A stretch of DNA of 64,000 bases from an uncultured Pseudomonadota bacterium (GTDB lineage Bacteria > Pseudomonadota > Alphaproteobacteria > Acetobacterales > Acetobacteraceae). This document shows, in pieces, positions 6,660 through 62,080 of this stretch; position 1 is the stretch's first letter; the number at the start of each line of letters is the position of its first letter. Location: positions 431,532 to 495,531 of the forward strand of contig CAWHWH010000041.1 of assembly GCA_963832865.1 (NCBI GenBank), written 5' to 3'. The position numbers were made by a program, and so were the translations under genes. The notes below the pieces were generated by a model. That model did no database searches and was not told the origin of the DNA. It saw only the letters and a program-made list of their open reading frames with translations.

Positions 6660-7229
6660 GGCGGGGCGACTCTCCGAACTTTTCGCGCCCGGGAGTATCG
6701 CCCTCAGATCCCCTCGCGCAAGCCACGACGTGAACCGGCACTTGAAGCTCGATTTTCGGCTGGTTTTAAGTAGATATGAAGTCGGCCCGCGATCTCAACA
6801 GTATCCAATCGTATTCCGCTTCGCACCCGGCGACGTCCTTCGTCCCGGGCGTCGCCGGGTGCACCCTGGCGTGGTCTACCCCACCCTCCGGCGCCGCCTG
6901 TTCACCCGAGCCGCCGGATCGGCCGCGCCTGGAGCTTCACCGGAGGGGGATCCCGCCAGCCCCGGAACCGCCGTCGCCCGCGAGTTCTCCAGGGCCTCCG
7001 GTCTGAGCGAAGGCGCCCGGCTTATGGCGGCCGCCGCGTGGTCTTTCGAGGCGCGTTTCAGCGACCGGCGCGACCGGATCCTTGTCCCGAAGGCAAGCCA
7101 CTCAGAACACGCTCTCGCCTTCAGGGAGTTGGGGCAATCGATGGAATCCAGGGATTTTGCGGTCGCGCTGACCTTTCGGAAGCACTCATGATGCCTTATC
7201 TGCCACTCTGTAGCCAGGAAGAACGATCC

Positions 7230-7985: not shown

Positions 7986-8478
7986 GCGCACCTTCTCGGA
8001 GAGATCAAGCACTGGGCGCCCACGATCACGACCGTGAAGCGGCGGAGGCCAGCCCCGCACGTAGCTGATCATCCGTCTGGGCCGGCACCGGGGCGCTGGG
8101 TTTGATCATCTCTGCCCGTGAGACCATCCGGGCGCTGGCCTGTAGGCCGTCCGGATGATCAGCCGCAGCCGACTTCACCCGGTTTCGGGCCCTGCCGCCA
8201 GCCACCTGATCGGGAGGCAATGTCTCTCCATGCCCCACAGATCGGGTATCGGACTCGCGGTGGTTGCAAAAGCTCAAACCCGGACCCGCCTGCCATGCAG
8301 ACGCATCCGACAGAAAGATGATGTCAATGCCACACTGGCCCAGCCCCTTCGTAGCCAAAAATCCATTGATCGTCCAACGGGCCCGCCGTTTTGTTCGGGA
8401 ATCCTGGGCGACCGGTTTCCTTGACCCGCCATTCATCCCCGGCTCAAATCGTGGAAAATCGTTGAAGGCCGTCATCCC

Positions 8479-8691
8479 ATGGCGCTCAGCCGCTCGACCC
8501 GCGTTAATGTCCTGGTTGGCAACGGCCATTTTCTGTCTCATTTCTATGTCCTGTCCCTCCCGCCGATGTTCCTGGCGTGGCAGAGCGCCTTCCACGTCAG
8601 CTTTGCCCAGCTTGGGATGACGATCATGCTGATGTCCGGCACTACGGCCATTTTGCAAACTCCGGTTGGCTTTTTAGTGGACCGGCACGGC
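8479..8691 (+). pseudogene. MFS transporter, 5' fragment (TM1-TM2 up to motif A 'GFLVDRHG'), truncated by insertion
   Basis: MALSRSTRVNVLVGNGHFLSHFYVLSLPPMFL...PVGFLVDRHG, after which the frame runs into foreign sequence and stops at 8712. Confidence 0.7.
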
Positions 8692-10181
8692 AGCGGTTCT
8701 CAATGCGAATGAGTTGCGCTCTGAGTCTGCAGTGTACGATGACCTGAGTTCGATATGCCACATATTGTGGAGTTATTGACTGGCTCCCACAGCATGCGGT
8801 GATTTTCTCTTGTGGGTAGGCTCGATCGTCGATTTAAGGGCGAGGGTGAGCGCCATTGCAGACATGATCGGGGCGTTGAGCGAAGTCTGCGCCGGTCTGC
8901 ACGACCAGCGCAGAGGCCCGCGGCGCGACGGCGACTACACAATGGCGGACATTGGTCTGGCGGCGTTTTCGATCTTCTTCATGGGAAGCCCGTCGTTCCT
9001 TGGGCATCAGCAAGCGCTGGCGGAGGGGCACGGTCGGTCGAACTGCGAGACGCTGTTCGGCATGTCGGCGATCCCCTCCGACAACTACATCCGCCTGATG
9101 CTGGACGGCGCTTCGCCTGCGGCATTCGACGGACTGTTCGTGAAGGCGATCGAGGCAGCGGGGCCACTGACACCGTTCCAGTGTCTTGACGGGCGGGTGC
9201 CGATCGCGCTCGATGGGAGCGAGCACTTCTGTTCGCGCAAGATCAAATGCGAGCAGTGTTCGACACGGCGGCGCGCCGATGGCGGCACCGAATACTTCCA
9301 CGCCTTCCTGGGTGCCAGCTGGTCGACCGGGCCACAGCGTAGGTCCTGCCCCTGCGCCGGAATTTATCGCGCCGCAAGATGGGGCGGAGAAGCAGGACTG
9401 CGAGCGCAATGCCGCGAAACGGTGGCTGGCCCGGCACGGCGCCGACCTCGCTCACCTCCGGCCTGTCTATCTCGGCGACGATCTGTTTGCCTGCCAGCCG
9501 ATCGTTGCCGCCATCCAAGATGCCGGCGGCAACTTCATCCTCACCTGCAAGCCAGCTTCGCATAAGACGATTGCTGAATACCTGCAGGGCGCCGAACTGC
9601 AAGAACATCGTCAGACCATCTGCAAACGCGGCAAGCGCACCACCACCACCTACCGCTGGCTCAACGCCGTGCCGCTGCGCGCCACGGACGATGCCATCCT
9701 GGTCAACTGGTTCTCCATCGAGACCTTCAACGCCAAGGGCAAGCGAACCTATTACAACAGCTTCGTCACCGATCTCGCCATCACACGCGACACTGTCGCC
9801 GAACTGGCCGCCTGCGGCCGCGCCCGTTGGAAGATCGAAAACGAGACCTTCAACGTGCTCAAGACCAACGGTTACAATCTCGAACACAACTTTGGGCACG
9901 GCAAGAAAACCCTCGCCAGCATCCTGGTCACCCTCAATCTGCTCGCTTTCGCATTCCACACCGCCGCTTATCTCGGGGTCCTCGCCTGGCGAGCCGCCAT
10001 CATCGCCCGTGGCCCCATGTATCGCTTCTTCGAGCATCTGCGGACTGTCACCGCCTATGTTGTCTTCCAGGACTGGCCTCACCTGCTCCAGTCCATCGCC
10101 GCGGCCGCGATACGGCCACCTTGACCACAGGCATCCCACCGTCCCGCCACTCAACCCACCTCAACACGGAGCCGAAACGCC
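8692..10181 (+). mobile_element. IS element (~1.5 kb, DDE transposase of IS4/ISNCY-like type) inserted in the MFS gene; ends approximate
   Basis: It separates the two MFS halves. The left boundary is inferred from where MFS coding ends and where a 62-nt repeat shared with 57398-57458 begins. The right boundary is inferred from where homology to the second copy (near 16608) ends. Confidence 0.7.
8810..10124 (+). pseudogene. DDE transposase, frameshifted (two overlapping ORFs 8810-9565 and 9186-10124)
   Basis: C-terminal 'GRARWKIENETFNVLK' is a YREK-type DDE signature. Comparison with the copy at 15636-16565 shows small indels around 9305-9360 that switch frame ('FHAFLGASW|STGPQ..' versus 'FHAFLGASMVAPGHKQVLPLPPEF'). 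Confidence 0.75.
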
Positions 10182-12556: not shown

Positions 12557-13480
12557 ATGAAGTTTGGCATTCACAATCCGTCATTTGTGTTCGGTCCCGA
12601 TCCGGCCGAAGCCTTCGAGGGACTGAAGACGAAAGCGCAATGGGCCGAGACTCATGGCTTCACCTGGTTCTCGGTGATGGACCACTTGATCCAGATCCCT
12701 CCGGTCGGTCAGCCGGATGAACCCTTCATCGAAGGCTGGACGGCGCTGTCCGCACTGGCCGCCGTTACCGATCGCATTCGCCTTGCCACGCTGGCGTCCT
12801 CGGTCGCCTATCGCAATCCCGCTCACCTGGCCAAGATCGCCGCCGGCGTTGACCTGATCAGCCGAGGCCGTCTCACGCTTGGCATCGGCGCCGGCTGGTT
12901 TGAGACCGAATACCGCCAATATGGCTGGGAGTTTCCGGAGCGGCCGGCCGTGCGGATCCGTCAACTGGAGGAGGCCGTCAGGCTCATTCTCGCGATGTGG
13001 TCGGAGAAGCGGACGACGTTCCACGGCAAGTACTTTCATGTTGAGGACGCGATCCTGGAGCCAAAGCCCCGATCCCGGCCACCAGTCATGATCGCCGGCG
13101 GTGGCGAGCAACTCACATTGCGCGTGGTCGCCCGTCTGGCGGACGCCTGCAATGTGTTCGGCGATCCAGCAGAGGTTAGGCGGAAGTTCGCTATTTTACG
13201 CGACCATTGCGAAACCGAACAGCGCGACTATGGGGCGATCGAGAAGACTGTCGTGATCGGGTTGCTGTTAGCGCGGGACGAAGCGACGCTTGCTGCCAAA
13301 CGCGCCCGCCTTGGAGCGCGGGAGCAATTTCGGGGCTTTGCCGGCACGGTTTCCACCGTCACCGACCTAGCTGGGCGATATCAGGACGCGGGTGTGCAGA
13401 CTTTGATCTGCGGGGCGTTCAAGAATGATCGGGAAACACTGGAATTGCTCGCCTCGGACGTCATCCCGCGATTTGGTTGA
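12557..13480 (+). CDS. LLM-class (luciferase-like) flavin/F420-dependent oxidoreductase
   Basis: 'MKFGIHNP...WFSVMDHLIQ...EGWTALSALAAVTDRIRLATL...YRNPAHLAKIAAGVDLISRGRLTLGIGAGW'. ATG 12557 is preceded by AGGAGG. Confidence 0.85.
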   Translation: MKFGIHNPSFVFGPDPAEAFEGLKTKAQWAETHGFTWFSVMDHLIQIPPVGQPDEPFIEGWTALSALAAVTDRIRLATLASSVAYRNPAHLAKIAAGVDLISRGRLTLGIGAGWFETEYRQYGWEFPERPAVRIRQLEEAVRLILAMWSEKRTTFHGKYFHVEDAILEPKPRSRPPVMIAGGGEQLTLRVVARLADACNVFGDPAEVRRKFAILRDHCETEQRDYGAIEKTVVIGLLLARDEATLAAKRARLGAREQFRGFAGTVSTVTDLAGRYQDAGVQTLICGAFKNDRETLELLASDVIPRFG

Positions 13481-13782
13481 CAGCGCGAGCCTTTTGCCGA
13501 TCGGAGACGGCCGCCACGGACGCGCCGCATTCGAACCTCGGGACCATGCTCTAGTCCGAACTTCGCCCTGAAAATTCACCAACTAGCTGATATCGCTCAA
13601 TTTCCTTTTTGAGCTCTGTCTACATCGGCTACCCCAACAAGGTGGTCGAAATTCAATTCAAAGCGGGTGCCTCGTGCCAAGTTGTGTTCGCCGCGATGCA
13701 TATTCGATCCACCGGACAACTCCTTGTCAAGACATTTTGGAGCCAAAACATGACTACGTCCGTACCCATGTTTTGAGCTATT

Positions 13783-14181
13783 TCAATGTATTAGTCGAAA
13801 AAGGGCGCAAAGTTCGGTCTCGTGGACCGTCTGCTGGGTGTTTCCAGCCGCGTCGCCGTAGGTTGCGATCGTCGCCATTCCCTCGACCTGCCAGCGCTTC
13901 ATTGCGAACGAAACCGCTTTTCCCTCCGGCGTTCGCAAAGTTAACACCAGATCCTGACCAGTTGGCGTCCGCTCAAGCCTCCAGCTATCGAGCGGATGCA
14001 CTACACCGTCGCCGCCGGAACGCGGCAGCGCGTTCAGCATACTGTTCAACCAATTCGCAGGGAGCGTGAAGCGGACCGTTCGGCCGGACCGATCGCGAAC
14101 CCGCAGTCGCAGCCGCCTCCCGTCCGTCGAAATATGAACGCTGTCCAGTTCCATCGCTTCTATGACGCTCGGATCGGTCAT
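13783..14181 (-). CDS. hypothetical protein (132 aa), downstream partner of the DUF2325 gene
   Basis: Same strand as the DUF2325 gene with a 41-nt gap. Its 14-nt initiation region (AGGCGAGATCATGA) is identical to that of the upstream gene. No motif recognised. Confidence 0.5.
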   Translation of the reverse strand: MTDPSVIEAMELDSVHISTDGRRLRLRVRDRSGRTVRFTLPANWLNSMLNALPRSGGDGVVHPLDSWRLERTPTGQDLVLTLRTPEGKAVSFAMKRWQVEGMATIATYGDAAGNTQQTVHETELCALFRLIH

Positions 14182-14222
14182 GATCTCGCCTCAAATGTTG
14201 AAGTCGGCGAATTCGTTGTGGA

Positions 14223-15479
14223 TCAATCGGCGGCCTCGGCCAGTTTCGTCACTTCCGGGGCGTGGAGCGCGGTCAGGAGGGAGGTCACGCTGGCGGACCG
14301 CAGCGGGATAAAGCGCTTGCCCGTCTGACGGCAGAGCGATTTGACGATGTTCGCGGCATCGTGGCTGATGCAATCAACCGGAAACAGAACAAGGCTGGCG
14401 CGGCTGGCGAGGCCCGCGAGTAGGTTCGGGTGGTTTTCCACGCCGCCATCGTGGTGCAGGAACGTAGCCCCCGACTGCTCCACCACGGCCCGCATATGGG
14501 CAACCTGGTTCGGTCTGCCACCGACATAAAGCAGTACGACGCCGTCCAACCGAGCGGCGGGGGAAGTGGGAGTAAGGGGCTGCAAAAGAGAGGATTCGAT
14601 TGCCTCCAGTTCCGCCCGCATTGCCTTGTGGGTTCGTTCCGTCGTCAAGCGCGCCACCCGTTCGGAATCGAGATCGTTGCGGATCGCGGTCAGTCGTTCC
14701 TCTAATGTTGATCGCCGCCGACTCTCGGCGGCGAGGCGCCGTTCCAGGTCGATGATGATGCCTTGCAGCGCGCCATCGTTATCCGGCATGACAGGGTCGG
14801 TGATGATCCGGGTCATGAGAGCGTCGCGCAGTGCCTGGATCTGTGCGTCACGAGTCACCAGGGCGGTATGAAGTGCCTGTTGCTGCCGTTCCAGCCTCGT
14901 CTCGAGCTCTGCATTTGCTGCTTCAAGCTGGCACAATCGCCGGATATCGGCCCTGTTCGCCGAGCCCACCAGGTGCGACAGCATATGCACCTCGCCGAAG
15001 GCTTCACGAATAATCGTCTGGTTGGCGAGCGGGTGCGTCAGCGTTGCCCAATAGGCGCCCGGGATATCGCCACGCCGGACCGCGTCGCGCCACATGGCAC
15101 GCAGGTCGTCCTGGGTGGCCGCCTTGCCGAACTGACTGACCGCCAGCTTGTGGCGGCGATCCAGCGCCTTGTGCAACTGGCGCGCGGCTTCGTCGTGGCG
15201 AGAGGCGAGGGTGACGGCTCTGCCATGCAAGTCGTGATCGGTGCATTCCGCGGACGCCAGGCCGAACTTCCGCAGCACCTGCCGCAACTCTCCGGTGGAG
15301 AGGCATGTGCCAATGATCGAGCAGTGCAGGTGGGTGCTGAACTCCCAGATTTTCGTCCGCCGCGGCGCCGCTTCGCGCTTGATCAATGTTGGCGGGATGG
15401 CGCGGAGGTCGATGCCCATCGACAGTGCGGAGGTGCTTGGCGGGTTTGCGATCGCGATAGAAAGCCCTGCTGCGCTCAT
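14223..15479 (-). CDS. DUF2325-domain protein (N-terminal conserved domain, coiled coil, C-terminal DUF2325)
   Basis: C-terminal 'LLYVGGR...HHDGG...LVLFPVDCISHDA...K..C...GKRFIPLRSAS' fits my recollection of DUF2325. The N-terminus carries 'KIWEFSTHLHCSIIGTCL..ELR' and 'FGEVHMLSHLVG'. The middle is heptad-rich. Confidence 0.7.
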   Translation of the reverse strand: MSAAGLSIAIANPPSTSALSMGIDLRAIPPTLIKREAAPRRTKIWEFSTHLHCSIIGTCLSTGELRQVLRKFGLASAECTDHDLHGRAVTLASRHDEAARQLHKALDRRHKLAVSQFGKAATQDDLRAMWRDAVRRGDIPGAYWATLTHPLANQTIIREAFGEVHMLSHLVGSANRADIRRLCQLEAANAELETRLERQQQALHTALVTRDAQIQALRDALMTRIITDPVMPDNDGALQGIIIDLERRLAAESRRRSTLEERLTAIRNDLDSERVARLTTERTHKAMRAELEAIESSLLQPLTPTSPAARLDGVVLLYVGGRPNQVAHMRAVVEQSGATFLHHDGGVENHPNLLAGLASRASLVLFPVDCISHDAANIVKSLCRQTGKRFIPLRSASVTSLLTALHAPEVTKLAEAAD

Positions 15480-47006: not shown

Positions 47007-47868
47007 CTATTCGACTACCTCCCCAGGTCGTGCGTCCAACTTCGCAACAGCGTCTTTTGCCAAAGCCGTGCCACGCTCGCGTAACAAGACGTTCACACGC
47101 GGCGTCGAATTTTGAAAATCTCCCGATACAACAGCGACAACCGAATACCGTGCTGCTCCACGCCCGATGGCGGTAACGGTGATTCTCAACAACGAGTCCG
47201 CAGGCTGCTGAGCTGATCCAGAAGCAGCGGCAACCCCGGCGGCATCTGTCAGCGCCCTTGCAACGACGGGATCGCGTGTCGACATGTCAGGATCGCCATC
47301 GGTCAGCACCGTCAGATGCGGAGCCATGCGAGCGAACAAATCCGGAGACATTCCTAACACGTCCGCCAGTTCGTCGACACTTTGAAACGGTGTGCCAGGC
47401 GGACCATAGTCACGTCCGGCAGCCCGATAGTCTGCCGCCTTGGCGCCGCGGGGCCGAGCATTAGCCCCCGCTGTGCGCCAGTCCAATATCGCGGCGGCAA
47501 GTCGGTCGGCCAAACCCGGCGCACCACCAACTTCGATGATCAAAGATCGCAGTAAGACCGCCGACGCGGTATTGAGATTGACCCGGTCGCCCTCGTTCTC
47601 CACACGGACCAGAACCGGCGTTCCCCCGACGCGCACCTCCGACATCACGCCATACGTCTGGAATTGCGGATCTTTTGCACCCAATCAGAAATGTAACATT
47701 CTGTATGGCGCCGGCCGCTGCCGCCTCCAGGACAGCCTCTTGCCTTAGATTGTCCGCCAATCGAGTATCCGATCGCCCGGCCGCGACGATTTGCGTTCCA
47801 AGCAGCGCGAGAAACGCTACGGTCCACAGCACGATCAGCAATGCGAAACCGCGCTGGCGATTGATCAT
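47007..47868 (-). pseudogene. gspK: T2SS minor pseudopilin GspK, interrupted by a single-base frameshift near 47680
   Basis: The N-terminal part 'QRGFALLIVLWTVAFLALL' (ORF 47461-47907) and the C-terminal part 'VNLNTASAVLLRSL' and 'FQSVDELADVLGM' (ORF 47007-47684) are in different frames. The span is 862 nt, which is 3x287 plus 1. Confidence 0.8.
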
Positions 47869-48449
47869 GGCCGGGACAACAGCGGGGCGACCACGATGTC
47901 GGGCCATCGCTGTGCGGGTGAACCAGCAAACGTCACTCGGAAACGGATCAGCAACGGAAGGTCCGGCTCATGCCATTTGGCTACCCATACTCCGGGCGGC
48001 CGCCAATATTCGATCCCCAGGCGAGTCACACCGCTGATCAGTTCCGTTTCGGCCGGTGCGGGCGGCGGCCCCAACGGCACGGCGTGATGATAGGGACGCC
48101 AGCGCAACACTAGACGCGTGCCGGAAACCGCCAACCCGGCCTCGATGCGCATTGGCATCAGCCCCGAGCGTGGCAGGCGAAGGCGGGTGACGCCAGTCAA
48201 GGTATCGGCCGATCCCTCGATTGACGACTGAGCGGCGTCATCGGCCGGCGCAAGGTTTTCCACCACCGCTCTGAGGGTGCGATCCAGCGCGTCCAGGTCG
48301 GTTTTACCGTCGGACAGGCGGGCGTCCTGACGCCATGCGGCAAGACCGAACCGGACAGTTTGACTGAGGCCGGCCAACAAGAAGCCGAACACCGCCAGGG
48401 CGACCAGGATCTCCAGCAATGTGAACCCGTCCGACGCCCGCGCTTTCAT
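47865..48449 (-). CDS. gspJ: T2SS minor pseudopilin GspJ-like
   Basis: 'DG|FTLLEILVALAVFGFLL' prepilin motif, ~194 aa, ATGA overlaps on both sides. Start trimmed from the track ORF. Confidence 0.75.
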   Translation of the reverse strand: MKARASDGFTLLEILVALAVFGFLLAGLSQTVRFGLAAWRQDARLSDGKTDLDALDRTLRAVVENLAPADDAAQSSIEGSADTLTGVTRLRLPRSGLMPMRIEAGLAVSGTRLVLRWRPYHHAVPLGPPPAPAETELISGVTRLGIEYWRPPGVWVAKWHEPDLPLLIRFRVTFAGSPAQRWPDIVVAPLLSRP

Positions 48450-48844
48450 CCGCCGACCTGTTCGGTGTCCAGCCGTACGTCTCGTTCGGAGCCGCCGTCG
48501 TTCCAGCCGATCCAGACACTGACGGCATAAAGCACAACCGGGACGGACGCGGCGGCTCGAGGGCCTACCACCCCGGTCGGCCGTAGCGAGGCGCTCGCGA
48601 CAGGAACCACGTGCAATCGCCACCGAAAGCCGCCGCCGTCATCGCCGCGCCAGTCTCCGGCAGCCAGCTTCGTACCATGGGTCGCCGCGGCCAAGCGCGA
48701 CTTTGCCCGGACAACGGCCTGATCGTACATCGAGGCAGTCTGAGTTTCGTGCAGACCACTTCCGGCCGCCTCGAACAGCGCCACTGCCGCCATGCCGGCG
48801 ATCATCAGCGCGATGATCACTTCCAGCAGGGTGAAGCCTCTCAT
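48446..48844 (-). CDS. gspI: T2SS minor pseudopilin GspI-like
   Basis: 'MRG|FTLLEVIIALMIAG', 132 aa. Confidence 0.75.
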   Translation of the reverse strand: MRGFTLLEVIIALMIAGMAAVALFEAAGSGLHETQTASMYDQAVVRAKSRLAAATHGTKLAAGDWRGDDGGGFRWRLHVVPVASASLRPTGVVGPRAAASVPVVLYAVSVWIGWNDGGSERDVRLDTEQVGG

Positions 48845-50064
48845 CCGGATGCCAAGTTGTTCAGGCTGAGCATGGCGGTCATCAGGGAGGCGACGATGCC
48901 GCCGACCGCGACGCCCATCAGGATGGTCATCGCCGGGACCAGCAGGGCGGTCAGCCGCTGCGTCGCGAGGCGCGTTTTTTCCTCATGGATATCCGCGGCG
49001 CGTAGCGCCATAGGGGCAAGCTGCGCGGTTTCCTCGCCGAGGCGTAGCAGGTGGATCGCGCGTGCCGGGAACACGCCGGCGGCCTCCAGGTCGCGGGTCA
49101 GCGATCCGCCGCCGCGGGCCGTCACGCTCGCCTGCTCGACCGCCGACCGCGCCGCGTGGTTGCCCATCGCATCGCGCACGATCGCCAGCGCGGGGATCAA
49201 GGCGACACCGTTGTGCAGCAAGGTCCCAAGGACGCGGGTAAATCGAGCCGCCAGCACTTCCTGTGTCAGCCCGCCGATCACCGGCAGGCGCAGCACGATG
49301 CGATCGACGATCAGACGCACGCGTGCTTGCCGCAGTGCAAATCGGAGTGCGACGATCAGCACCAGTATCGCCAGCAACAGGAACAGCCCGTCTTCCTGGA
49401 CAAAGTTTCCCGCGGTGATCAGAAATTGGGTCGAAGCCGGCAGAGCGACGCCACTCTGCTCGAACATCGGCACGAACTGCGGCAGCACCTCGGTGAGCAA
49501 AAGCGTAACCGCGCCGATCATCGCCAGAAACAAGACAGCTGGATAGATCAGCGCCGAGGTTACGGTGGAAGCCAGCGCCCGTTGCCGGTCCAGCAGGTCG
49601 GCGATCCGCGACAAAGTCGGGCCCAGATTGCCGCCAGCCTCACCCGCACGCACCATACCGACATGCATCGCCGGGAACGTGGCCGGGTAGCGCGACATCG
49701 CGACCGACAATGGGCTGCCGTCGCGGACCGCGTCGCGCAGCCCGGTCACGGTGGGCCGCATCCGCCTTGGGGCGGTCTCCTGCATGTAGCGAAGGGCGCG
49801 GTCCAGATCCTGTCCGGCGGTCAGCATCGTCGCCAGTTCGCGGATCAGGTCGGCAACGTCCTGCTTGCGCAGTCCGCGCCGGCCCCCCAGGTCCATCTGC
49901 AACAACCCCGTCCAGCGCGAGGCCTTGTCCGCCGGTTCGGCGCGGACCGGCATCGAGCCCTGACGCTGCAGGCGGACGATGACCTCGGCCTCCGTCGCTG
50001 CTTCCATCAGGCCCGCAAGGCGTTCGCCACCGGCACCGATCGCTGTGTAGCGAAAGGTGGTCAT
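48841..50064 (-). CDS. gspF: T2SS inner-membrane platform protein GspF
   Basis: 407 aa with a duplicated GspF/PilC-type architecture and three predicted TM regions. Confidence 0.9.
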   Translation of the reverse strand: MTTFRYTAIGAGGERLAGLMEAATEAEVIVRLQRQGSMPVRAEPADKASRWTGLLQMDLGGRRGLRKQDVADLIRELATMLTAGQDLDRALRYMQETAPRRMRPTVTGLRDAVRDGSPLSVAMSRYPATFPAMHVGMVRAGEAGGNLGPTLSRIADLLDRQRALASTVTSALIYPAVLFLAMIGAVTLLLTEVLPQFVPMFEQSGVALPASTQFLITAGNFVQEDGLFLLLAILVLIVALRFALRQARVRLIVDRIVLRLPVIGGLTQEVLAARFTRVLGTLLHNGVALIPALAIVRDAMGNHAARSAVEQASVTARGGGSLTRDLEAAGVFPARAIHLLRLGEETAQLAPMALRAADIHEEKTRLATQRLTALLVPAMTILMGVAVGGIVASLMTAMLSLNNLASG

Positions 50065-51791
50065 GCATCCGCTCGGATGCTGCGGGTGAGTTCCTCGATC
50101 GTTGTCTCACCCGCCAGCGCAGCCGCGAGACCAGCCTCGAACATGATCTGCATGCCCTCGGCGACGGCGGCGCGTTCAATGGTAGCATGGTCCGCCCGCG
50201 CGAAGATCAGCCGTTCGATCTCGGGCCCGAGTTGCAGGAACTCGGCGATAGCGGTTCGTCCGCGGTATCCTGTCTGCCGGCACGCCGGGCAGCCGACGGC
50301 GCGCGATAGCATGATTGGTCGATCGCGTGTCAGACGATCGAGACCGAAACGTTGGACCAATTCGCCAGGCGCCGGTTCAGGCCGGCAGCAGTCTGCACAC
50401 AGACGCCGCACCAGGCGCTGCGCCATGATCCCGCGAAGCACAGCCGTGAGAAGGTAATCCTCGACCCCCATGTCGCGGAGCCGTGTGACGGCGGCGGCGG
50501 CGGAGTTGGTATGCAGCGTCGAGAGCACCAGATGCCCGGTCAACGCCGCCTGCACGGCGATCTGCGCGGTCTCCCCGTCGCGGATTTCGCCGACCATGAT
50601 GACGTCGGGGTCCTGCCGCAATATGGACCTCAGCAGGCTGGCGAAGGTCAGGCCGATCTGCGAGCGCACCTGAATCTGGTTGATGCCCTGGAGCTGATAC
50701 TCGATCGGGTCTTCAACAGTGACGATCTTTCGCGTGACCGCGTTGAGTGCCAACAGCCCGGTGTAGAGCGTCGTGGTCTTGCCGCTGCCGGTCGGCCCGG
50801 TCACCAGCACGATCCCGTTGGGCAACTCCAGCGCTGACCCCAGCTTGCTGATCACCGCCGGCGCAAGCCCCAGCCGAGCGTAATCGAACACCACGGCGGA
50901 TCGGTCGAGGATTCGCAGCACCACCGTTTCCCCGTGCAATGACGGGATCGTGGACACCCGGAAATCGACGTCCTGACCGCGCACCGCCATCTTTATGCGC
51001 CCGTCCTGTGGCATCCTCCGCTCGGCGATATCCAGACGAGCCATGATCTTGATGCGTGAAGTGATTGCTGCCGCGAGTTGCCGTGGCGGCGCCTCCGCCT
51101 CGTGCAACACCCCGTCATAGCGGTAGCGGACACGCAGCCGGTCCTCAAACGGTTCGATGTGGATGTCGGAGGCCTGCGTCTCCACGGCGCGCGTGATCAG
51201 CAGGTTCACCAGGCGAATCACCGGCGCCTCGCTGGCAAGGTCTTTCAGCCGTTCGGCGTCCTCTTCGAGCGGCGCCTCAGCCTCGGATGCGGAGGCGGTC
51301 GAGGTTTCCTCCGGGTAAAGCCGGTTCAGCGCCGCTTCCAGTTCGATCGGTACCGCGACCTCCAGCCGAACGCGCAAGCCGGTGGCAACCGCAACGGCAG
51401 CCTGAGCGAATGGGTCAAGCGGATCGGCCGCAGCCAACACTACCGTTTCAGCGTCAGCCGCAAGCGGAACGGCTCGGGTGTGCCGCAGGAATTCCGCGCT
51501 CAATCGGTCCGGCAGCACCGGTTCCAACGTCGGATATCGGTCGGCCGAGACCACTGGGATAGCAAGCAAATTGGAGTAGGCATCGGCCAATCCGCGCTCG
51601 GAGACCAGGCCCAACTGGATCAGGACCGCATCCAGGCGTTGGTCGGACTCGACCGCGACGCGCCGGGCACGCTCCAACGTCCTCTGGTCGCAGTGGCCCT
51701 GGCGCAGCAATATGTCGCCCAGTGCGTCAAGCTGGTGATCGGTGACGGTGGTTCCCATTTGGGGCCGCATTCCTGACGTGCTTGTCCGCAT
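50061..51791 (-). CDS. gspE: T2SS ATPase GspE
   Basis: Walker A 'VTGPTGSGKTTT', 'VGEIRD', tetracysteine 'CADCC...CPAC', and an N-terminal GspE_N-like domain. Confidence 0.93.
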   Translation of the reverse strand: MRTSTSGMRPQMGTTVTDHQLDALGDILLRQGHCDQRTLERARRVAVESDQRLDAVLIQLGLVSERGLADAYSNLLAIPVVSADRYPTLEPVLPDRLSAEFLRHTRAVPLAADAETVVLAAADPLDPFAQAAVAVATGLRVRLEVAVPIELEAALNRLYPEETSTASASEAEAPLEEDAERLKDLASEAPVIRLVNLLITRAVETQASDIHIEPFEDRLRVRYRYDGVLHEAEAPPRQLAAAITSRIKIMARLDIAERRMPQDGRIKMAVRGQDVDFRVSTIPSLHGETVVLRILDRSAVVFDYARLGLAPAVISKLGSALELPNGIVLVTGPTGSGKTTTLYTGLLALNAVTRKIVTVEDPIEYQLQGINQIQVRSQIGLTFASLLRSILRQDPDVIMVGEIRDGETAQIAVQAALTGHLVLSTLHTNSAAAAVTRLRDMGVEDYLLTAVLRGIMAQRLVRRLCADCCRPEPAPGELVQRFGLDRLTRDRPIMLSRAVGCPACRQTGYRGRTAIAEFLQLGPEIERLIFARADHATIERAAVAEGMQIMFEAGLAAALAGETTIEELTRSIRADA

Positions 51792-51856
51792 AGTTCGCCG
51801 GTGTGATCGCAGGCAAATGACAGGTCAGCGATCCACCGTTCCGCGAAGGGATACGC

Positions 51857-52642
51857 GTGATAGATTGGTTCGGTTCAGCCTGGTCATGGCCGCTGTTGGC
51901 CGCGCCATTTGTTGGCAGTTTTCTGGGCGTCCTGATTGTCCGTCTGCCAAGCCGTGCGCCTGTCGTTTTGGCGCGCTCAGCCTGTGCCCACTGCGGCACG
52001 CGGCTAGGCGCGCTCGACCTTGTGCCGCTGATTAGCTTTGCAGTTTCTCGCGGCCGCTGCCGATATTGCCGGGCACCGATCGGGCTGTTTTACCCGGCGG
52101 TGGAATTGGCCGCCACCGCGGTCGCGCTTTGGGCGGTGCTGGTCGATCCCGAGACCGGCCGTGTTTGGGCTGACTGTGGGTTGGGGTGGACTTTGCTGGC
52201 CCTGGCATGGATCGACTGGACCGATTTCCTGCTGCCTGACGTGCTAACGTTGCCCCTCGTTCTGGCTGGCCTGGCGTCGACCTTGACCTTTGATTCGAAC
52301 GCACTGACCGACCACTGCCTCGCCGCTATCTTAGCCTACTTGTCGTTCCGCAGCCTGGCTGCCGCCTACCGCCGGCTGCGCGGCCGGGATGGGCTCGGCG
52401 GGGGCGATGCCAAGTTAATCGCCGGAGCCGGCGCGTGGTGTGGCTTGGCTGCGTTACCGTTGGTGGTGCTGGGCAGCGCTCTGCTGGGGTTGCTCGCAGC
52501 CTTGGGATTGGCGCTGACCGGGCGATCCGTGACATCCACAACGCGGATCCCGTTCGGCCCCTGCATCGCGTTGGCCTTCTGGCTGGTGCGGATGCACGGT
52601 GCCTTGGCCGAGGATCTGCTCCGATTGCTGGGGAAATTCTGA
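51857..52642 (+). CDS. gspO: prepilin peptidase (A24 family, GspO/PilD)
   Basis: 'CAHCGTRL...CRYCR' zinc-knuckle region and 'GGGDAKL'. GTG start; divergent from gspE with a 65-nt gap. Confidence 0.9.
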   Translation: MIDWFGSAWSWPLLAAPFVGSFLGVLIVRLPSRAPVVLARSACAHCGTRLGALDLVPLISFAVSRGRCRYCRAPIGLFYPAVELAATAVALWAVLVDPETGRVWADCGLGWTLLALAWIDWTDFLLPDVLTLPLVLAGLASTLTFDSNALTDHCLAAILAYLSFRSLAAAYRRLRGRDGLGGGDAKLIAGAGAWCGLAALPLVVLGSALLGLLAALGLALTGRSVTSTTRIPFGPCIALAFWLVRMHGALAEDLLRLLGKF

Positions 52643-52968
52643 TGCGACGGATGGCTGCGACGCTTCTCCTGCTGCTCGCCGTGACGCCAGGGCTTGCCGC
52701 CGAACGCGGTCCCGTCTGCCGGGAGACGTCGGTGGTGGACGAAATCAGTCGTCAGGTCCGGGCCGGGGACTACTATGCCGACGTTGATCCACGATTGGTG
52801 GCTGAACAGCCCACTGCCGACCCGCGCTTCGTGCATTGCCAGGTCTGTGTGTTGGTCGCGCCGTTCGACACCCCACGGTTCGGAGACCGCCCGATCGCGC
52901 AATGCATATCTCGACGCTTTGAGGTGCAAATCTTGTCCGACGGCTTTGTCGTGCGCGCGCTCCAATAA
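52642..52968 (+). CDS. small secreted Cys-containing hypothetical protein (108 aa), translationally coupled to gspO
   Basis: Its ATG overlaps the gspO TGA by 1 nt. Signal peptide MRRMAATLLLLLAVTPGLAAE; 4 Cys; no recognised family. Confidence 0.55.
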   Translation: MRRMAATLLLLLAVTPGLAAERGPVCRETSVVDEISRQVRAGDYYADVDPRLVAEQPTADPRFVHCQVCVLVAPFDTPRFGDRPIAQCISRRFEVQILSDGFVVRALQ

Positions 52969-52983
52969 CCGCCGGGTCATTAC

Positions 52984-57397: not shown

Positions 57398-57458
57398 TCG
57401 GACTCAGGTGATCACACGCTGCAACTCAGAGCGCAACTCATCCGCATTGCGAACCGCT
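57398..57458 (-). repeat. 61-nt copy (about 87% identical, opposite orientation) of the sequence at the MFS/IS junction 8692-8753; probable solo IS-end remnant
   Basis: Aligned by hand: AGCGGTTC(G/T)CAATGCG(G/A)ATGAGTTGCGCTCTGAGT.. gives 8 differences over 62 positions. Confidence 0.7.
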
Positions 57459-57540
57459 GGGACACGAGGCACCGGCTTGTGGCCAGACAACGTCCATAGT
57501 ACGGCGACCACACTGCTCCCGAGGCTCGATTCGATTATGC

Positions 57541-58923
57541 ATGCTGTTTAACAGTTACTCCTTTCTGCTGGCGTTCCTACCTGGATCCCTGCTCGCATAC
57601 CGGGCTATCGACGGTTACGCGCGATTGCGTGTCCCGATGTTGATCCTGGCTTCGCTGCTGTTTTACGGCCTCTGGAACCCAGAATTCATCCCCCTTCTCG
57701 TGGGATTGATCGTCGTCAACTGGCTGGCCGCGCGATGGTTTGGGCGAACCCGGAACGGCGCGATCATCACCGCCGCGATCGTTTTGACTCTGATCGTACT
57801 GGGCTTGTACAAATACGCGGATTTCTTCGCTGCCACCTTGACTGCGCTGACCGGCATTCCGCTCGGCCGGCTGCATCTCACGCTGCCCATCGGTATCAGC
57901 TTCTTTACCTTCCACCACATCATGTATTTAGCGGATCTTCGGCGCGGGCGCGCTCAGTTGACGACACTAGACCGCTACGCGCTTTATATTTGCTTTTTCC
58001 CTCAAGCGGCCGCGGGTCCCCTGGCGCGATGGTCAGAAGTGGGCAATCAATACGGTCAGCGGGCGTTCGGTCCCGGGTGGGAACGGCGCTGCGCGCTGGG
58101 GATTACCTTCATCGTCCTCGGCCTGGTCGAGAAAGTCGCGTTCGGAGATCCGATCGGTCACATCGTAAATCCGATCTACCAAGCAGCCGCCGAGGCGCCG
58201 GTCACTGACGGGTCAGCGTGGCTGGCACTGGGCTTCGGCTTCCAAATCTTCTTCGATTTCACCGGTTATAGCGACATGGCCATCGGAATCGGGCTACTTT
58301 TCGGAATTCGGCTCCCCGATAACTTCAACGCGCCATTTCGGGCGCCCAGCATTCTAGTGTTCTGGCAACGTTGGCATATGACGTTGTCGCGCTTCCTGCG
58401 GGATTACGTCTTCTTGCCGCTGGCCGATATGCGCATTGCCGGCACCCGCCACACAGTCGCGCAGTATGTCCTGGCGATCCTTGCGACCATGGCGCTGTGC
58501 GGCCTCTGGCATGGCGCAGGCTGGAATTTCGTCCTTTGGGGCGTCATGCACGGCGTGGCCATCATCGTTGCCCTGGGTTGGCGGCGGTACGCCATCCGGC
58601 CGCCCCGTGTGGTCGGTTGGTTTCTCACCGTCCTGTTTTTCCTGCTGAGCGGGATCGTGTTTCGCACCGGCACACTGAACGCAGCGTGGAACCTATACTC
58701 GGGTCTGGCGGTGACGCCGAGTCTCGAGTTGTTGGGAAAGTCGTGGCTTCTCGGGGTGGCCATCGCGTTCGCGACGCTGCTGCCGGGGTCGCGGGAGCTT
58801 TGCGCCCGCATCTGCGATCGGCCAAGGATGATCGTCCCCGTTGCATTCGGTCTGGTCTGCATGGCGATGATGACGCTGCTCGGAGGCGATGAGAGCTATG
58901 AGTTCATCTACTTCAAGTTTTGA
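57541..58923 (+). CDS. MBOAT-family membrane O-acyltransferase (AlgI/DltB-like)
   Basis: 'MLFNSYSFLLAFLP', 'FWQRWHMTLSRFLRDYVFLPL', 'CGLWHGAGWNFVLWGVMHG' (conserved MBOAT His). Confidence 0.9.
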   Translation: MLFNSYSFLLAFLPGSLLAYRAIDGYARLRVPMLILASLLFYGLWNPEFIPLLVGLIVVNWLAARWFGRTRNGAIITAAIVLTLIVLGLYKYADFFAATLTALTGIPLGRLHLTLPIGISFFTFHHIMYLADLRRGRAQLTTLDRYALYICFFPQAAAGPLARWSEVGNQYGQRAFGPGWERRCALGITFIVLGLVEKVAFGDPIGHIVNPIYQAAAEAPVTDGSAWLALGFGFQIFFDFTGYSDMAIGIGLLFGIRLPDNFNAPFRAPSILVFWQRWHMTLSRFLRDYVFLPLADMRIAGTRHTVAQYVLAILATMALCGLWHGAGWNFVLWGVMHGVAIIVALGWRRYAIRPPRVVGWFLTVLFFLLSGIVFRTGTLNAAWNLYSGLAVTPSLELLGKSWLLGVAIAFATLLPGSRELCARICDRPRMIVPVAFGLVCMAMMTLLGGDESYEFIYFKF

Positions 58924-59932
58924 TTCCCCATCCGGCGTTGCAGCTGACGCGGGCGCCGAGGCATCCTGGCGTCGGTGGATCATTGTATTTTGCGCCACCT
59001 TTTTCGGTCTCGGCGGCCTGTTGTTCACCCTGTTGCTGCTGATCGATCCGTACGACAGCGCCCGTTTCCCCACGTTCGGAATAGTCGGTATTGACGATCA
59101 CAATCCGCGCATGGCGAATGTCAGCCGCGGGCGCGATCCAGCCTTCGATAGCGCGGTCTTCGGCAATTCAACCGGTCAGTTGATCGATCCGCACCGCATT
59201 GGGCCACCCACCCACCTGCGTTTCACGCAGTTGACGGTGCCCGCGACCGGGCCTCGAGAGCAACTGGCGATGATGGGATGGTTCGCCTCCCACCACGACA
59301 AGATGGGCGCCCTTATTCTGGTGGCCGACAATAGCTGGTGCGCGCAAAGCGCTGATCTTCAGGTCACGCACCCGTTTCCATTTTGGCTTTATGGCGGCGA
59401 TCGCGACTACCTGGCCCATGTGCTGAACAGCAAATCGTTGGATCGCGCGGTCTGGCGGGTGGAGCTCGCTTTCGGGATGCGACGCCGGACCGACCCGGCG
59501 GGCTATTCGGATTACATGGCGGGCAAAAAGTTTACGTTCGTGCCACAAGTTCCGGAACCGGCCGAGGATCTATCCTTCGCGAAGTTCCCGCTGCAGTTTC
59601 CCTGGATTGACCGCCTGCGGGATCAGATCGCGAGGCTGCCGCCGGAAGCAGCCGTTGTCATCGTCGTGCCGCCGATCTACGCCCCGCTGCTCGAACCGGC
59701 TAACAGCGTCGGGGCCTTGGCCGAAACGGCGTGCAAATCCATGCTGGAAGCTTCAGTGGCCGGTCGGCACCGCAGCGCGTTTCTGGATTTCCGCGTTGAC
59801 AACGCTGTCACGCGCGATCCCGGCAACTTCGCTGACGGAGTGCATTACCGCAACGATATCGCACGGGAGATTGAGGAACGGATCGTCGCCACGTTGCGTC
59901 CCGCCGCCGAGCGAACAGCGGAGGTGCGCTGA
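58889..59932 (+). CDS. membrane-anchored extracytoplasmic protein, putative SGNH/DltD-like partner of the MBOAT (start 58889 or 58898)
   Basis: Overlaps the MBOAT 3' end. Single N-terminal TM 'WIIVFCATFFGLGGLLFTLLLLI'. 'VFGNSTG' is a candidate block-I Ser, and the C-terminal 'FADGVHY' is a candidate DxxH block V. The fold assignment is inference. Confidence 0.6.
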   Translation: MRAMSSSTSSFDSPSGVAADAGAEASWRRWIIVFCATFFGLGGLLFTLLLLIDPYDSARFPTFGIVGIDDHNPRMANVSRGRDPAFDSAVFGNSTGQLIDPHRIGPPTHLRFTQLTVPATGPREQLAMMGWFASHHDKMGALILVADNSWCAQSADLQVTHPFPFWLYGGDRDYLAHVLNSKSLDRAVWRVELAFGMRRRTDPAGYSDYMAGKKFTFVPQVPEPAEDLSFAKFPLQFPWIDRLRDQIARLPPEAAVVIVVPPIYAPLLEPANSVGALAETACKSMLEASVAGRHRSAFLDFRVDNAVTRDPGNFADGVHYRNDIAREIEERIVATLRPAAERTAEVR

Positions 59933-60050
59933 TGGTTGCTCTGCCGCACCTGATCCCGACGTCAGCAGATCGCTACGACTAAACAATGACACGCCATTTT
60001 GATAAACGAATGCTGTGTTTCGCGCCACTCGGCGGACAATGGGAGTTATC

Positions 60051-60341
60051 ATGGCACCCCCTGAGCAGGATGTGACAGAAGCGGAGGTTCGAACATGGTG
60101 CGGCGACTATCTGGCTAAGGCGCTGCGTATTCGTCGGAATCGCATCGAGGATGACGCAAACTTCGCCGGTTTAGGTCTTGATTCAGCCGAGTCCGTGTTC
60201 ATGGTGACCGCACTCGAGGACTGGCTGGGACTGGAACTCGAGTCCGAGACAGTTATTGAACATCCTAGCGTCACCGAACTGGCACGGTTCATCATGAAAC
60301 GGCTCGCAGACCGGTCAGCCGCACCGACCGGGCGACGGTGA
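60051..60341 (+). CDS. acyl/peptidyl carrier protein (DltC-like position)
   Basis: 'FAGLGLDSAESV' phosphopantetheine-attachment Ser motif. GGGAG SD before ATG 60051. Its stop overlaps the FAAL GTG start (GTGA). Confidence 0.8.
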   Translation: MAPPEQDVTEAEVRTWCGDYLAKALRIRRNRIEDDANFAGLGLDSAESVFMVTALEDWLGLELESETVIEHPSVTELARFIMKRLADRSAAPTGRR

Positions 60342-62080
60342 CAGGTTTGGACGCGGACCTGTTTCGATACAGACCGGTGTCGATGACCGATCTGCTCGTG
60401 AGGCGGGCGGTAGAGAACCCGGACGGCCAGGCGTTCGCATACGTCCCCGAGCGGGAAGTCCCTCGCGTGACCCTGACCTACCGCGAGCTCGAAATGGGCG
60501 CCCGTGCCACTGCTGCGCGGTTGTCCAGGCAAACCACCCCTGGCGATCGCGCCATTCTGTTGTTCCCACCGGGACTGGATTTCATTGTCGCGTTCTTCGG
60601 TTGCCTTGCCGCCGGCGTTATCGCCGTGCCGTTGATGGTGCCCAGACGAACCGCCGCGCGGGATTCCAGCACAGCGATTCTAAAGAATTGTGCGCCGCGC
60701 GTCGTGTTGACCAGCCGGGATCTATGGGACGGACGGCCGGACCTGAAGGAGAAATTCGACGGCACGAATTTCTCATGGATGGTCGTGGACGCCAATGACA
60801 ACGCGCCGCCGCCGGAGTTGGAGGTTCCCGCGCCCGGCCCCAATGACATTGCGCTGTTGCAATACACCTCGGGTTCAACGTCCAGCCCCAAGGGGGTGAT
60901 GGTTTCTCACGCCAACATCATCGCCAATCTCGAAATGATCCGCCTGTGCATGAGCAATCCGGCGCGTGCGATCAGCGTGAGTTGGGTGCCGCTGTATCAC
61001 GACATGGGACTTATGATGGGCGTGATGCAGCCACTGTATCTTGGCGGCCTGTCGGTCCTGCTGGCGCCCGCTTCGTTCATGCGACGGCCGTTGAATTGGC
61101 TTCAGGAGATCCATGCAAATCGCGCGGCACTGACCAGTTCTCCAAACTTCGCGTTCGATCTGTGCGTCAGCCGCCTGCAGCCGGGGATGATGCGCGGTAT
61201 CGACCTGTCCTGTTGGCAGCTCACGCTGAACGGCGCCGAGCCGGTTCAGGCCGCCACAATCGAACAATTCACGCGCGCTTTCGCCCCGTATGGCTTCGAC
61301 CCAGGGGCAATGTATCCTGGCTACGGGCTGGCGGAGGCGACCCTACTGGTCTCGGGCGGTCGTCGCGGTGCCGAGCCGATACGACGGCGTGTGAGCCGCG
61401 ATGCATTGCGGAACGACCTGGTGACGGCGCCACGCGACGATGCCGACGCACAATGGGTCGTCGCCAGCGGGCGGTGTGTTCCCGGCGCTCGCATCGCCAT
61501 CGTGGATCCGGAAACGTCGCGTCAGGTCCCGGCCTTATCGGTTGGTGAGGTGTGGGTATCAGGCCCCAGTATCGCGCGCGGCTATTGGCATGATCCGCAG
61601 GCGACAGCAGAGACATTCGAGGCGCGGATCGCAGGCACCAGCGGCGAGACGTGGCTGCGGACCGGCGATCTAGGCTTTCTCGATCCAGACGGCGCACTGT
61701 ATCTGACCGGCCGGATCAAGGATCTGATCATCATTCGCGGTATGAACCACTACCCTCAAGATATCGAGCGGACCGTGCAGGATAGCCATCCGGCACTACG
61801 ACGCGACTGCGGTGCCGCGTTTTCGGTCACCGACGAAACCGGGGCAGAACGGCTTGTAGTCGTGCAGGAAGTCGAGCGGACGCAGCGGATGCATCTCGAC
61901 ATCGAACCATTGTTGCGTACTATCCGAGAAGCGGTGACGACGGCGCATGAAATCTCCGTTCACTCCATCACGCTGATCCGTCCAGCCAGCCTACCCAAGA
62001 CTACAAGCGGCAAGGTTCAGCGGTCGTTAACGCGCCGTTTATGGTTGGAAAACGGACTGGACGTTGTGGGCGAGCCGTAA
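60338..62080 (+). CDS. fatty-acyl-AMP ligase (FAAL, FadD32-like adenylating enzyme)
   Basis: 'LQYTSGSTSSPKGVMVSHANI', 'WVPLYHDMGL', 'SPNFAF', 'GYGLAEATL', 'WLRTGDLGF', 'GRIKDLIIIRGMNHYPQDIE', 'KTTSGKVQR'. Confidence 0.88.
   Translation: MTGLDADLFRYRPVSMTDLLVRRAVENPDGQAFAYVPEREVPRVTLTYRELEMGARATAARLSRQTTPGDRAILLFPPGLDFIVAFFGCLAAGVIAVPLMVPRRTAARDSSTAILKNCAPRVVLTSRDLWDGRPDLKEKFDGTNFSWMVVDANDNAPPPELEVPAPGPNDIALLQYTSGSTSSPKGVMVSHANIIANLEMIRLCMSNPARAISVSWVPLYHDMGLMMGVMQPLYLGGLSVLLAPASFMRRPLNWLQEIHANRAALTSSPNFAFDLCVSRLQPGMMRGIDLSCWQLTLNGAEPVQAATIEQFTRAFAPYGFDPGAMYPGYGLAEATLLVSGGRRGAEPIRRRVSRDALRNDLVTAPRDDADAQWVVASGRCVPGARIAIVDPETSRQVPALSVGEVWVSGPSIARGYWHDPQATAETFEARIAGTSGETWLRTGDLGFLDPDGALYLTGRIKDLIIIRGMNHYPQDIERTVQDSHPALRRDCGAAFSVTDETGAERLVVVQEVERTQRMHLDIEPLLRTIREAVTTAHEISVHSITLIRPASLPKTTSGKVQRSLTRRLWLENGLDVVGEP

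Follow-up and report, generated by a model that had tools for sequence, protein, structure and literature searches.

Analysis of a 64,000-nucleotide stretch of DNA from an uncultured Acetobacteraceae bacterium (GenBank assembly GCA_963832865.1, contig CAWHWH010000041.1, positions 431,532 to 495,531; hereafter the window) revealed a conserved and uncharacterised cassette of four plus-strand open reading frames (ORFs) at positions 57541-62080. In this order, the ORFs encode a membrane acyltransferase of the MBOAT family, a protein that we call X, a carrier protein and an adenylating enzyme of the fatty-acyl-AMP ligase (FAAL) type, a composition that appears to be new among MBOAT-SGNH systems. 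Judged by its sequences, the cassette reads as a hybrid, in which an MBOAT-SGNH pair of the PatA/AlgI type is joined to a Dlt-like carrier donor and a FAAL loader. We consider it probable that the four proteins constitute a self-contained relay which moves an acyl group across the inner membrane, from the FAAL to the carrier protein, the MBOAT and finally X. An original prediction, made from the sequence of the window alone, had placed the four same-strand genes correctly and had likened them to the Dlt machinery. The logic of that comparison holds, since an adenylating enzyme, a carrier protein, an MBOAT and an anchored SGNH-fold protein are all present, but membership tests for DltA, for DltB with DltX, for DltC and for the DltD family place none of the four proteins in a Dlt family.

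The adenylating enzyme (565 aa, 60383..62080, + strand; 580 aa if read from GTG 60338) had been predicted to be a FAAL and not a DltA-type ligase, and the database searches bear this out. The protein matches Pfam AMP-binding (E 3.8e-65) and carries the DIP2/FAAL-type C-terminal domain PF23024. Against NCBIfam, it scores 381-464 bits with subfamilies of stand-alone fatty-acid--AMP ligases, and 510 bits with the N-terminal (loading) region of the nonribosomal peptide synthetase/polyketide synthase model PRK05691. Models of acyl-coenzyme A (acyl-CoA) ligases reach at most 188 bits, with the exception of PRK07768 (long-chain-fatty-acid--CoA ligase) at 326. The best matches in the Protein Data Bank (PDB) are 7r7e-g (E ~1e-149; 2.7e-149 for 7r7f), aligned over residues 16-579, and further matches include the Legionella FAAL 3kxw (6e-116), FadD32, FadD23 and FadD28, such that FAALs span E values of 1e-149 to 1e-69. 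Amino-acid adenylation domains and CoA ligases follow at 6e-51 or weaker, and DltA is absent among the 55 PDB matches at E <= 1e-20. In the alignment to 7r7f, a comparison with a FAAL only, practically no gaps occur across residues 340-372, the site of the insertion that in FAALs blocks the use of CoA.

The stand-alone acyl carrier protein (ACP; 96 aa, 60051..60341, + strand; 108 aa from GTG 60015) matches Pfam PP-binding (E 2.8e-12), and the serine expected to bear the phosphopantetheine arm is Ser57 of the motif LGLDS (60183-60185, numbering of the 108-aa ORF). Its nearest relatives are CurA, the polyketide synthase carrier 6d8i and the N-terminal ACP of Pks13, which is loaded by FadD32; DltC was not among its matches in NCBIfam or the PDB. 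The likeness is thus to polyketide synthase-type carriers that are loaded by FAALs, rather than to DltC. Entries 7r7e-g and 6d8i are labelled only 'Polyketide synthase'; we take them to be the FAAL and the ACP of an olefin synthase. Since the nearest solved relatives of both proteins are such pairs, the donor side of the cassette appears to be of the lipid-loading FAAL/ACP kind rather than aminoacyl. In known FAAL-ACP pairs, of which FadD32 and the Pks13 N-terminal ACP are among the best matches here, the fatty acid is adenylated and loaded onto the carrier with CoA bypassed. Unlike in those pairs, the downstream partner in the cassette is an MBOAT with an SGNH-fold protein, and not a ketosynthase or condensation domain.

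The MBOAT (460 aa, 57541..58923, + strand), which existing annotation names AlgI, combines a DltB-like core with extra C-terminal helices. It matches Pfam MBOAT at E 1.5e-18, yet scores only 175 bits against the NCBIfam DltB equivalog model, the cutoff of which is 375. Its only PDB sequence matches are the DltB structures 6bug and 8jem (E 5e-33), which cover residues 114-349; some 110 residues lie beyond this alignable core. An AlphaFold2 model of the protein, with a mean predicted local distance difference test score (pLDDT) of 88.3, places the last helix at residues 431-449, and a Foldseek search with this model returned DltB as the best match (template modelling (TM) scores of 0.65/0.72), followed by HHAT and PORCN. 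The histidines H324 (in WHG) and H279 (in RWH) are invariant across sets of 34 and 53 homologues.

At its C-terminal end, the MBOAT reads ESYEFIYFKF followed by the stop codon, and residues 455-460, FIYFKF, can be read directly from the DNA (58903..58920, + strand, with the codon of Tyr457 at 58909-58911). By its sequence, this hexapeptide corresponds to FXYXXF, the tyrosine motif that serves as 'acyl shuttle' in MBOATs of the PatA/AlgI type, a feature on which the original prediction was silent. Of the related MBOATs, 65 could be followed as far as the stop codon, and in every one of them the motif forms the extreme C-terminus. The tail that carries it (residues 452-460, after the last helix) has a pLDDT of 36, and because of this low model confidence it is probably flexible. 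PatA auto-acetylates the tyrosine of FXYXXF, and PatB then takes the acetyl group from that tyrosine (Anderson et al., J Biol Chem 2025, PMC12148441). The Dlt pathway has the motif on a separate microprotein, DltX, and DltB is without the two C-terminal helices that bear it (PMC12148441). The fused motif and the extra helices of the PatA/AlgI class, together with the absence of a DltX, lead us to abandon the description of this protein as a DltB-type MBOAT.

Comparison with DltABCD(X), which together with the Bordetella dra locus counts as the nearest system, nonetheless reveals a shared plan. In Dlt, and probably in the cassette as well, an adenylating enzyme loads a carrier protein, the MBOAT takes the acyl group from a phosphopantetheine thioester, and an FXYXXF tyrosine passes it to an anchored SGNH-fold protein outside the membrane. 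The cassette differs from Dlt in having a FAAL instead of DltA, a polyketide synthase/FAAL-type carrier instead of DltC, and the shuttle motif on extra helices of the MBOAT rather than on a microprotein; its SGNH-fold protein has no sequence similarity to DltD, and it is found in a Gram-negative bacterium, which lacks teichoic acid. The common four-part logic, along with DltB being the only solved relative of the MBOAT by sequence, could be taken to indicate aminoacylation as in the Dlt and dra systems, with D-alanine or another amino acid being placed onto an envelope polymer. We regard this as highly improbable in light of the scores of the ligase against FAAL-type models (381-510 bits), the want of DltA among its 55 PDB matches at E <= 1e-20, a carrier that is not DltC-like, and a fused shuttle motif in the place of DltX.

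Protein X (344 aa, 58898..59932, + strand; 347 aa from ATG 58889) gave no match to Pfam, NCBIfam or PDB sequences when searched as a single sequence, and a profile of 38 sequences likewise matched no Pfam or PDB sequence family. Its homologues number in the hundreds and are all annotated 'hypothetical'; among 1.84 billion cluster representatives, the profile retrieved 1,383 clusters at E <= 1e-3, 376 of them at E <= 1e-30. The AlphaFold model (pLDDT 89.5, predicted TM score (pTM) 0.85) comprises an N-terminal helix at residues 18-52, presumably the membrane anchor, followed by an alpha/beta domain. A Foldseek search of the PDB with this model returned SGNH hydrolases as the top matches, among them PAF acetylhydrolase (E 1.6e-4, target TM ~0.57), besides sialate O-acetylesterases, GDSL lipases and the C-terminal domain of OatA. 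DltD (6pfx) appears at rank 9 (E 6.4e-4, TM ~0.33).

The catalytic residues that had been predicted for X are present and invariant in all 38 homologues. Numbered from ATG 58889, the putative triad consists of Ser94 in GNST (59168-59170), Asp316 (59834-59836) and His319 (59843-59845), the latter two in DGVH (DxxHY in the family), all on the plus strand. GNS(94)T corresponds to block I of the SGNH hydrolases and D316-x-x-H319 to block V, and G121 is invariant as well, while the block III position is held by an invariant Asp147 (D-x-x-W-C) and not by Asn. The best Pfam SGNH/GDSL model for the family, Lipase_GDSL_2, reaches a non-significant E of 0.059 and does so in 4 of the 38 members. Cys151, Cys282 and a PFPFWLY segment are also invariant in the alignment, and in 35 of the 38 homologues these two cysteines are the only ones of the globular domain. 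On account of the two invariant cysteines and the N-terminal anchor helix, a periplasmic, disulfide-bonded domain is favoured. The model gives X an SGNH fold, and by sequence X represents a new family and not a member of the DltD family. Of the earlier SGNH/DltD-like assignment, therefore, the fold stands, with DltD among the structural matches, but membership of DltD by sequence does not, even by profile.

Two further features of the X family deserve mention. The serine-rich N-terminus of X, MSSSTSS (58898-58923), was considered as a functional motif and rejected, as it is the +1-frame reading of the MBOAT codons for YEFIYFKF and the stop; its conservation is a by-product of a 26-nt overlap with conserved MBOAT codons. 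Separately, one family member, P0527, is twice the usual length (683 aa), its X domain (residues 35-350) being followed by approximately 330 residues of other sequence.

The MBOAT-X pair resembles PatA/PatB, AlgI/AlgJ/AlgX and WssH/WssI, in which an MBOAT with a fused C-terminal FXYXXF is encoded beside a periplasmic SGNH transferase in a Gram-negative host. Three hallmarks of such pairs are found here: the invariant MBOAT histidine, the fused motif, and an adjacent SGNH-fold partner with Ser, His and Asp. X nevertheless lies outside the PatB, AlgJ, AlgX and WssI sequence families. The PatAB/AlgIJ-type systems use acetyl-CoA as donor and have no carrier protein (PMC12148441). Here, in contrast, a dedicated carrier protein and a FAAL are linked to the pair in 51 of 80 loci, as described below, a linkage which suggests that the acyl donor is bound to a carrier and probably long.

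A scan limited to one genome per species detected 207 loci with a relative of X, of which 80 were kept for analysis. These derive from uncultured Alphaproteobacteria, Acetobacteraceae, Rhodospirillales, Xanthobacteraceae, Bradyrhizobium, Methylorubrum/Methylobacterium and Microvirga. Carriers in culture include Bradyrhizobium elkanii WSM2783, B. guangdongense, B. cenepequi and Bradyrhizobium sp. LjRoot220. The MBOAT and X genes are adjacent in 75 of the 80 loci, a FAAL gene lies within 5 kb downstream of the pair in 51, and a carrier-protein match is found beside the FAAL wherever the contig extends far enough. The genes are thus conserved as neighbours, and the four-gene arrangement is far beyond chance. 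The colinear order MBOAT-X-ACP-FAAL of the window occurs in 23 loci of the Acetobacteraceae/Rhodospirillales type (MBOAT identity to the window 56-96%), while a convergent order, MBOAT-X> <FAAL-ACP, occurs in 28 loci of Bradyrhizobium and Xanthobacteraceae (52-62%). As the arrangement is colinear in some lineages and convergent in others, the proximity of the FAAL has survived inversion.

The remaining 29 loci (21 with adequate flanks), from Methylorubrum, Pseudolabrys and others, have no FAAL nearby. The presence of the FAAL tracks the lineage of the MBOAT: identity to the window protein is 52-96% where a FAAL is linked, and has a median of 40% where it is not. Because about one third of the pairs are without a linked FAAL, we view the FAAL and carrier protein as a lineage-specific donor module added to an older MBOAT-SGNH pair. 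Five positions (window residues 190, 244, 276, 298 and 340) separate the FAAL-linked MBOATs (n=38) from the unlinked ones (n=15). One of these lies in the motif FW[Q/R]RWH, where FAAL-linked MBOATs have glutamine (Q276), unlinked ones arginine, and the carrier-dependent DltB asparagine. On this alignment, Q276 is a lead, a candidate for a docking signature. In some of the loci without FAAL or carrier protein nearby (L037, L041, L043, L044, L046 and L042, ~6800-10100), a single MBOAT gene is accompanied by two to five tandem X paralogues, which suggests several acceptors or specificities per MBOAT.

The genes around the cassette vary with the lineage, and several of them are of lipid type. Directly upstream of the MBOAT, 14 loci of the Bradyrhizobium type carry a fatty-acid desaturase gene. 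In L049 (1412-6571) and its equivalents in L045, L047, L050, L051, L053, L056, L059, L063, L066, L069 and L071, three genes stand at this place: one, divergent, for an oxidoreductase of the FAD/amine-oxidase type, one for a polytopic membrane protein of 782 aa without a Pfam match, and the one for the membrane desaturase. After the carrier protein, these loci encode a YkuD-type L,D-transpeptidase, together with an ABC-2 transporter. In loci of the Xanthobacteraceae type, a thiolase gene lies upstream of the MBOAT, and the carrier protein gene is directly preceded, on its own strand, by a gene for a 664-aa ABC exporter (ABC_membrane and ABC_tran) (7442-8608 and 13162-15156, respectively, in L086; also in L026, L029, L030, L035, L038, L039 and L070). 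We count the desaturase, the thiolase and the exporter in favour of the relay. No glycosyltransferase, polysaccharide, lipopolysaccharide (LPS) or lipid gene is consistently linked among the flanks of the loci examined. Since no such gene accompanies the cassette, the acceptor may be a lipid of the membrane or another widely shared part of the envelope, and not a polymer peculiar to single strains.

The relay can be envisaged as follows, its chemical steps being modelled on the Dlt and PatAB precedents. The FAAL would adenylate a carboxylic acid in its free form, in all likelihood a fatty acid of medium or long chain, and load it as a thioester onto the phosphopantetheine arm of the carrier protein and not onto CoA, as expected from its family. 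By analogy with DltB/DltX and PatA, the acyl-carrier would then dock on the cytoplasmic face of the MBOAT, where H324 would catalyse the step by which the acyl group reaches Tyr457, on the periplasmic side, in the flexible tail that ends in FIYFKF. Ser94 of X would take the group from the tyrosine ester, and X would finally pass it on to an acceptor with a hydroxyl or amine, situated close to where the inner membrane faces outward. That the group is a long chain is suggested by the family of the ligase. The handling of such a chain is physically reasonable, given that HHAT and PORCN are the next structural neighbours of the MBOAT after DltB. Like the cassette MBOAT as we envisage it, the eukaryotic HHAT, PORCN and GOAT move medium or long acyl groups across a membrane, but they use acyl-CoA, acylate the acceptor directly and have no tyrosine shuttle, SGNH partner or carrier.

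Several observations weigh against this relay. All scores of the ligase against FAAL models fall below the curated cutoffs, and FAAL-like enzymes can activate other acids; the nature of the acyl group is suggested by family likeness only. The structural likeness of X to DltD specifically is low, and the positive-inside signal of its helix is weak, with 1.8 Lys+Arg on one side and 1.2 on the other. In L081 and L082, X and the carrier protein are fused in one ORF which, if translated as a single chain, would put the carrier domain outside the cell together with a periplasmic X. Furthermore, in 21 of 63 adequately flanked loci the MBOAT-X pair has neither FAAL nor carrier protein nearby, and it follows that the pair can work with another donor. 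Finally, the genes that flank the cassette point to no particular acceptor; they differ by lineage, and none is universal beyond the four: elsewhere they include a helicase, carbonic anhydrase with a PfkB kinase, the desaturase, the thiolase and the ABC exporter, and the lineage of the window has no conserved neighbours beyond the four genes.

The loci without a FAAL raise the question as to whether MBOAT and X are simply an O-acetyltransferase pair of the ordinary kind, dependent on acyl-CoA like AlgI/AlgJ or PatA/PatB, to which the carrier protein and FAAL would be unrelated neighbours. The architecture of the MBOAT is that of CoA-using MBOATs, and annotators call it AlgI. However, FAAL genes are rare in genomes and yet lie within 5 kb of the pair in 51 of the 80 loci, in two orientations; the FAAL-linked MBOATs make up a clade of their own, marked by five diagnostic positions, Q276 included; and ORFs exist in which X and the carrier protein are fused. 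It seems quite unlikely, then, that the CoA-fed pair is the correct explanation.

The fused ORFs bear on the location of X. They are 456-464 aa in length, occur on three contigs and fall into two metagenomic protein clusters (proteins P0046 and P0053; L081 6001-7395 and L082 1709-3103), with no hydrophobic linker between the X and carrier parts. Together with the weak positive-inside bias, they could be read as indicating that X is cytoplasmic and acts on the acyl-carrier as a thioesterase, proofreader or transfer helper (a role once proposed for DltD), while the MBOAT acylates a membrane lipid directly. Just before the carrier part, however, the fusion junction contains an internal start signal, GGGGAGAG-N4-TTG, and at the position of the TAT of the fusion, the close relative P0044 carries a stop codon. 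In view of the internal ribosome-binding site and start, and of the stop codon in the relative, the fused ORFs were downgraded as an argument against a periplasmic X and count as only weak evidence; the internal start lessens the conflict and does not remove it. The two invariant cysteines, the sole ones of the globular domain in nearly all homologues, suggest a disulfide, and in every studied system a fused shuttle motif needs a periplasmic SGNH partner (PMC12148441). A cytoplasmic X thus appears very unlikely; an anchored X in the periplasm is favoured, though the weak charge bias and the fused ORFs call for some reserve.

Another possibility concerns not the relay but its cargo, which may be an unusual carboxylic acid, for instance a C35 hopanoid acid or one that is hydroxylated, branched or of very long chain. 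With such a cargo, the cassette could represent a missing late activity in the decoration of lipid A in Bradyrhizobium-type bacteria, either the enzyme that attaches a hopanoid to the fatty acid of very long chain length (VLCFA) or a second VLCFA acyltransferase. Bradyrhizobium and Xanthobacteraceae commonly carry the cassette, and the hopanoid-attaching enzyme and the enzyme for the second VLCFA (C30:29OH) were listed as unidentified in 2017 (PMC5613085). The sub-cutoff FAAL scores, which leave room for other substrates, and the lack of linked polysaccharide genes, which fits a universal acceptor such as lipid A, are in agreement with this explanation. On the other hand, it rests purely on taxonomic overlap, and only some Bradyrhizobium genomes were among the loci returned. 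The organism of the window and many other carriers of the cassette are Acetobacteraceae-like metagenome-assembled genomes, for which hopanoid-lipid A is undocumented, and the neighbouring genes for a desaturase and a thiolase speak for ordinary acyl chains. We therefore consider an unusual cargo unlikely, though less so than the alternatives discussed above.

As to the wider implications of the FAAL-to-X relay, a search of the full-text literature (subscription journals not covered) found no description of a system composed of an MBOAT, an SGNH protein, a carrier protein and a FAAL, in line with the original prediction, which knew of no characterised system of this composition. The current division of the field sets Dlt, with its carrier, separate DltX and D-alanine, against acetyl-CoA-fed, carrier-free systems with a fused shuttle (PMC12148441), and the cassette joins features of both. 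It also swaps the amino-acid ligase for a fatty-acyl-AMP ligase. If the relay operates as proposed, bacteria would move acyl chains that are CoA-independent and probably long across the inner membrane by means of an MBOAT. To our knowledge, such MBOAT transport has so far been known only for the eukaryotic HHAT, PORCN and GOAT. A function would also be gained for approximately 1,400 sequence clusters of 'hypothetical' SGNH-fold proteins, and the cassette would become a candidate source of those acylations of the envelope that lack an explanation in Bradyrhizobium, Xanthobacteraceae and Acetobacteraceae, including symbionts of agricultural importance that can be cultured and mutated. In its boldest form, the proposal is of a first bacterial MBOAT pathway that exports long-chain acyl groups through a FAAL, a carrier protein, a tyrosine-shuttle MBOAT and an anchored SGNH transferase of a new family so as to lipidate an extracytoplasmic component of the envelope in many Alphaproteobacteria, and its target could be one of the unassigned late acylations of Bradyrhizobium-type lipid A, such as that with a hopanoid or a second VLCFA. 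We put this forward tentatively, as a possibility that falls a little short of an even chance.

With regard to gene boundaries, the overlap between the MBOAT and X genes that had been predicted is real, and measures 26 nt from ATG 58898 or 35 nt from ATG 58889. Homologues and gene callers choose 58898, and the 26-nt overlap recurs in loci L083-L089, such that the overlap is solid at 26 nt. An environmental contig of 545 kb, contig_104223 of European Nucleotide Archive (ENA) assembly ERZ25039525, encodes an identical MBOAT and has the same neighbouring genes as the window; in the gene calls on it, the starts correspond to 58898 for X, 60051 for the carrier protein and 60383 for the ligase. The GTGA overlap between carrier protein and ligase that had also been claimed is present only if the ligase starts at GTG 60338, but this start is unlikely. 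In contigs with the identical MBOAT, the gene calls place it at ATG 60383, leaving a 41-nt gap after the carrier protein, and residue 16 is the first to align with FAALs of known structure; the overlap is doubtful for both reasons. Rfam yielded no match in or around the cassette, and scans for promoters and terminators around it remained at background level.

Upstream of the cassette, a solo insertion sequence (IS) end remnant that hinted at an accessory origin had been proposed at 57398-57458. The intergenic region there contains a 36-nt repeat at 57424..57459 (no strand assigned), 94% identical over its 36 nt to a copy at 8691-8726 on the opposite strand, and the latter copy stands beside frameshifted transposase-like ORFs (8810-9565 and 9186-10124; Pfam DDE_Tnp_1 at E 2e-4, below the cutoff). 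Homology with the closest relatives, L001 and L002, starts at approximately 57460-57467, just past the repeat, which thus marks the left edge of synteny; the sulfatase gene downstream of the cassette is syntenic. With a copy next to transposase-like ORFs and a place at the edge of synteny, the repeat may be an IS-end remnant, and can be called only a possible one. The case for an accessory origin is weak: the cassette is chromosomal, shows no clear G+C shift relative to its flanks, and is widely inherited in Acetobacteraceae, Xanthobacteraceae and Bradyrhizobium lineages. The repeat fits a local rearrangement upstream of the cassette, and not its recent horizontal acquisition.

In the window, the cassette is flanked by genes for a KefC-like antiporter and the sulfatase. 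Farther upstream, at approximately 47540-52970 (from the gene calls at 1-5427 of L089), lie type II secretion/type IV pilus-like genes, of GspE, GspF and GspK type, together with a prepilin peptidase gene; these are followed, toward the cassette, by genes for a ferritin-like protein, a 2-hydroxyacid dehydrogenase and KefC. On sibling contigs, GmrSD-like and IS66 genes are found downstream of the sulfatase.

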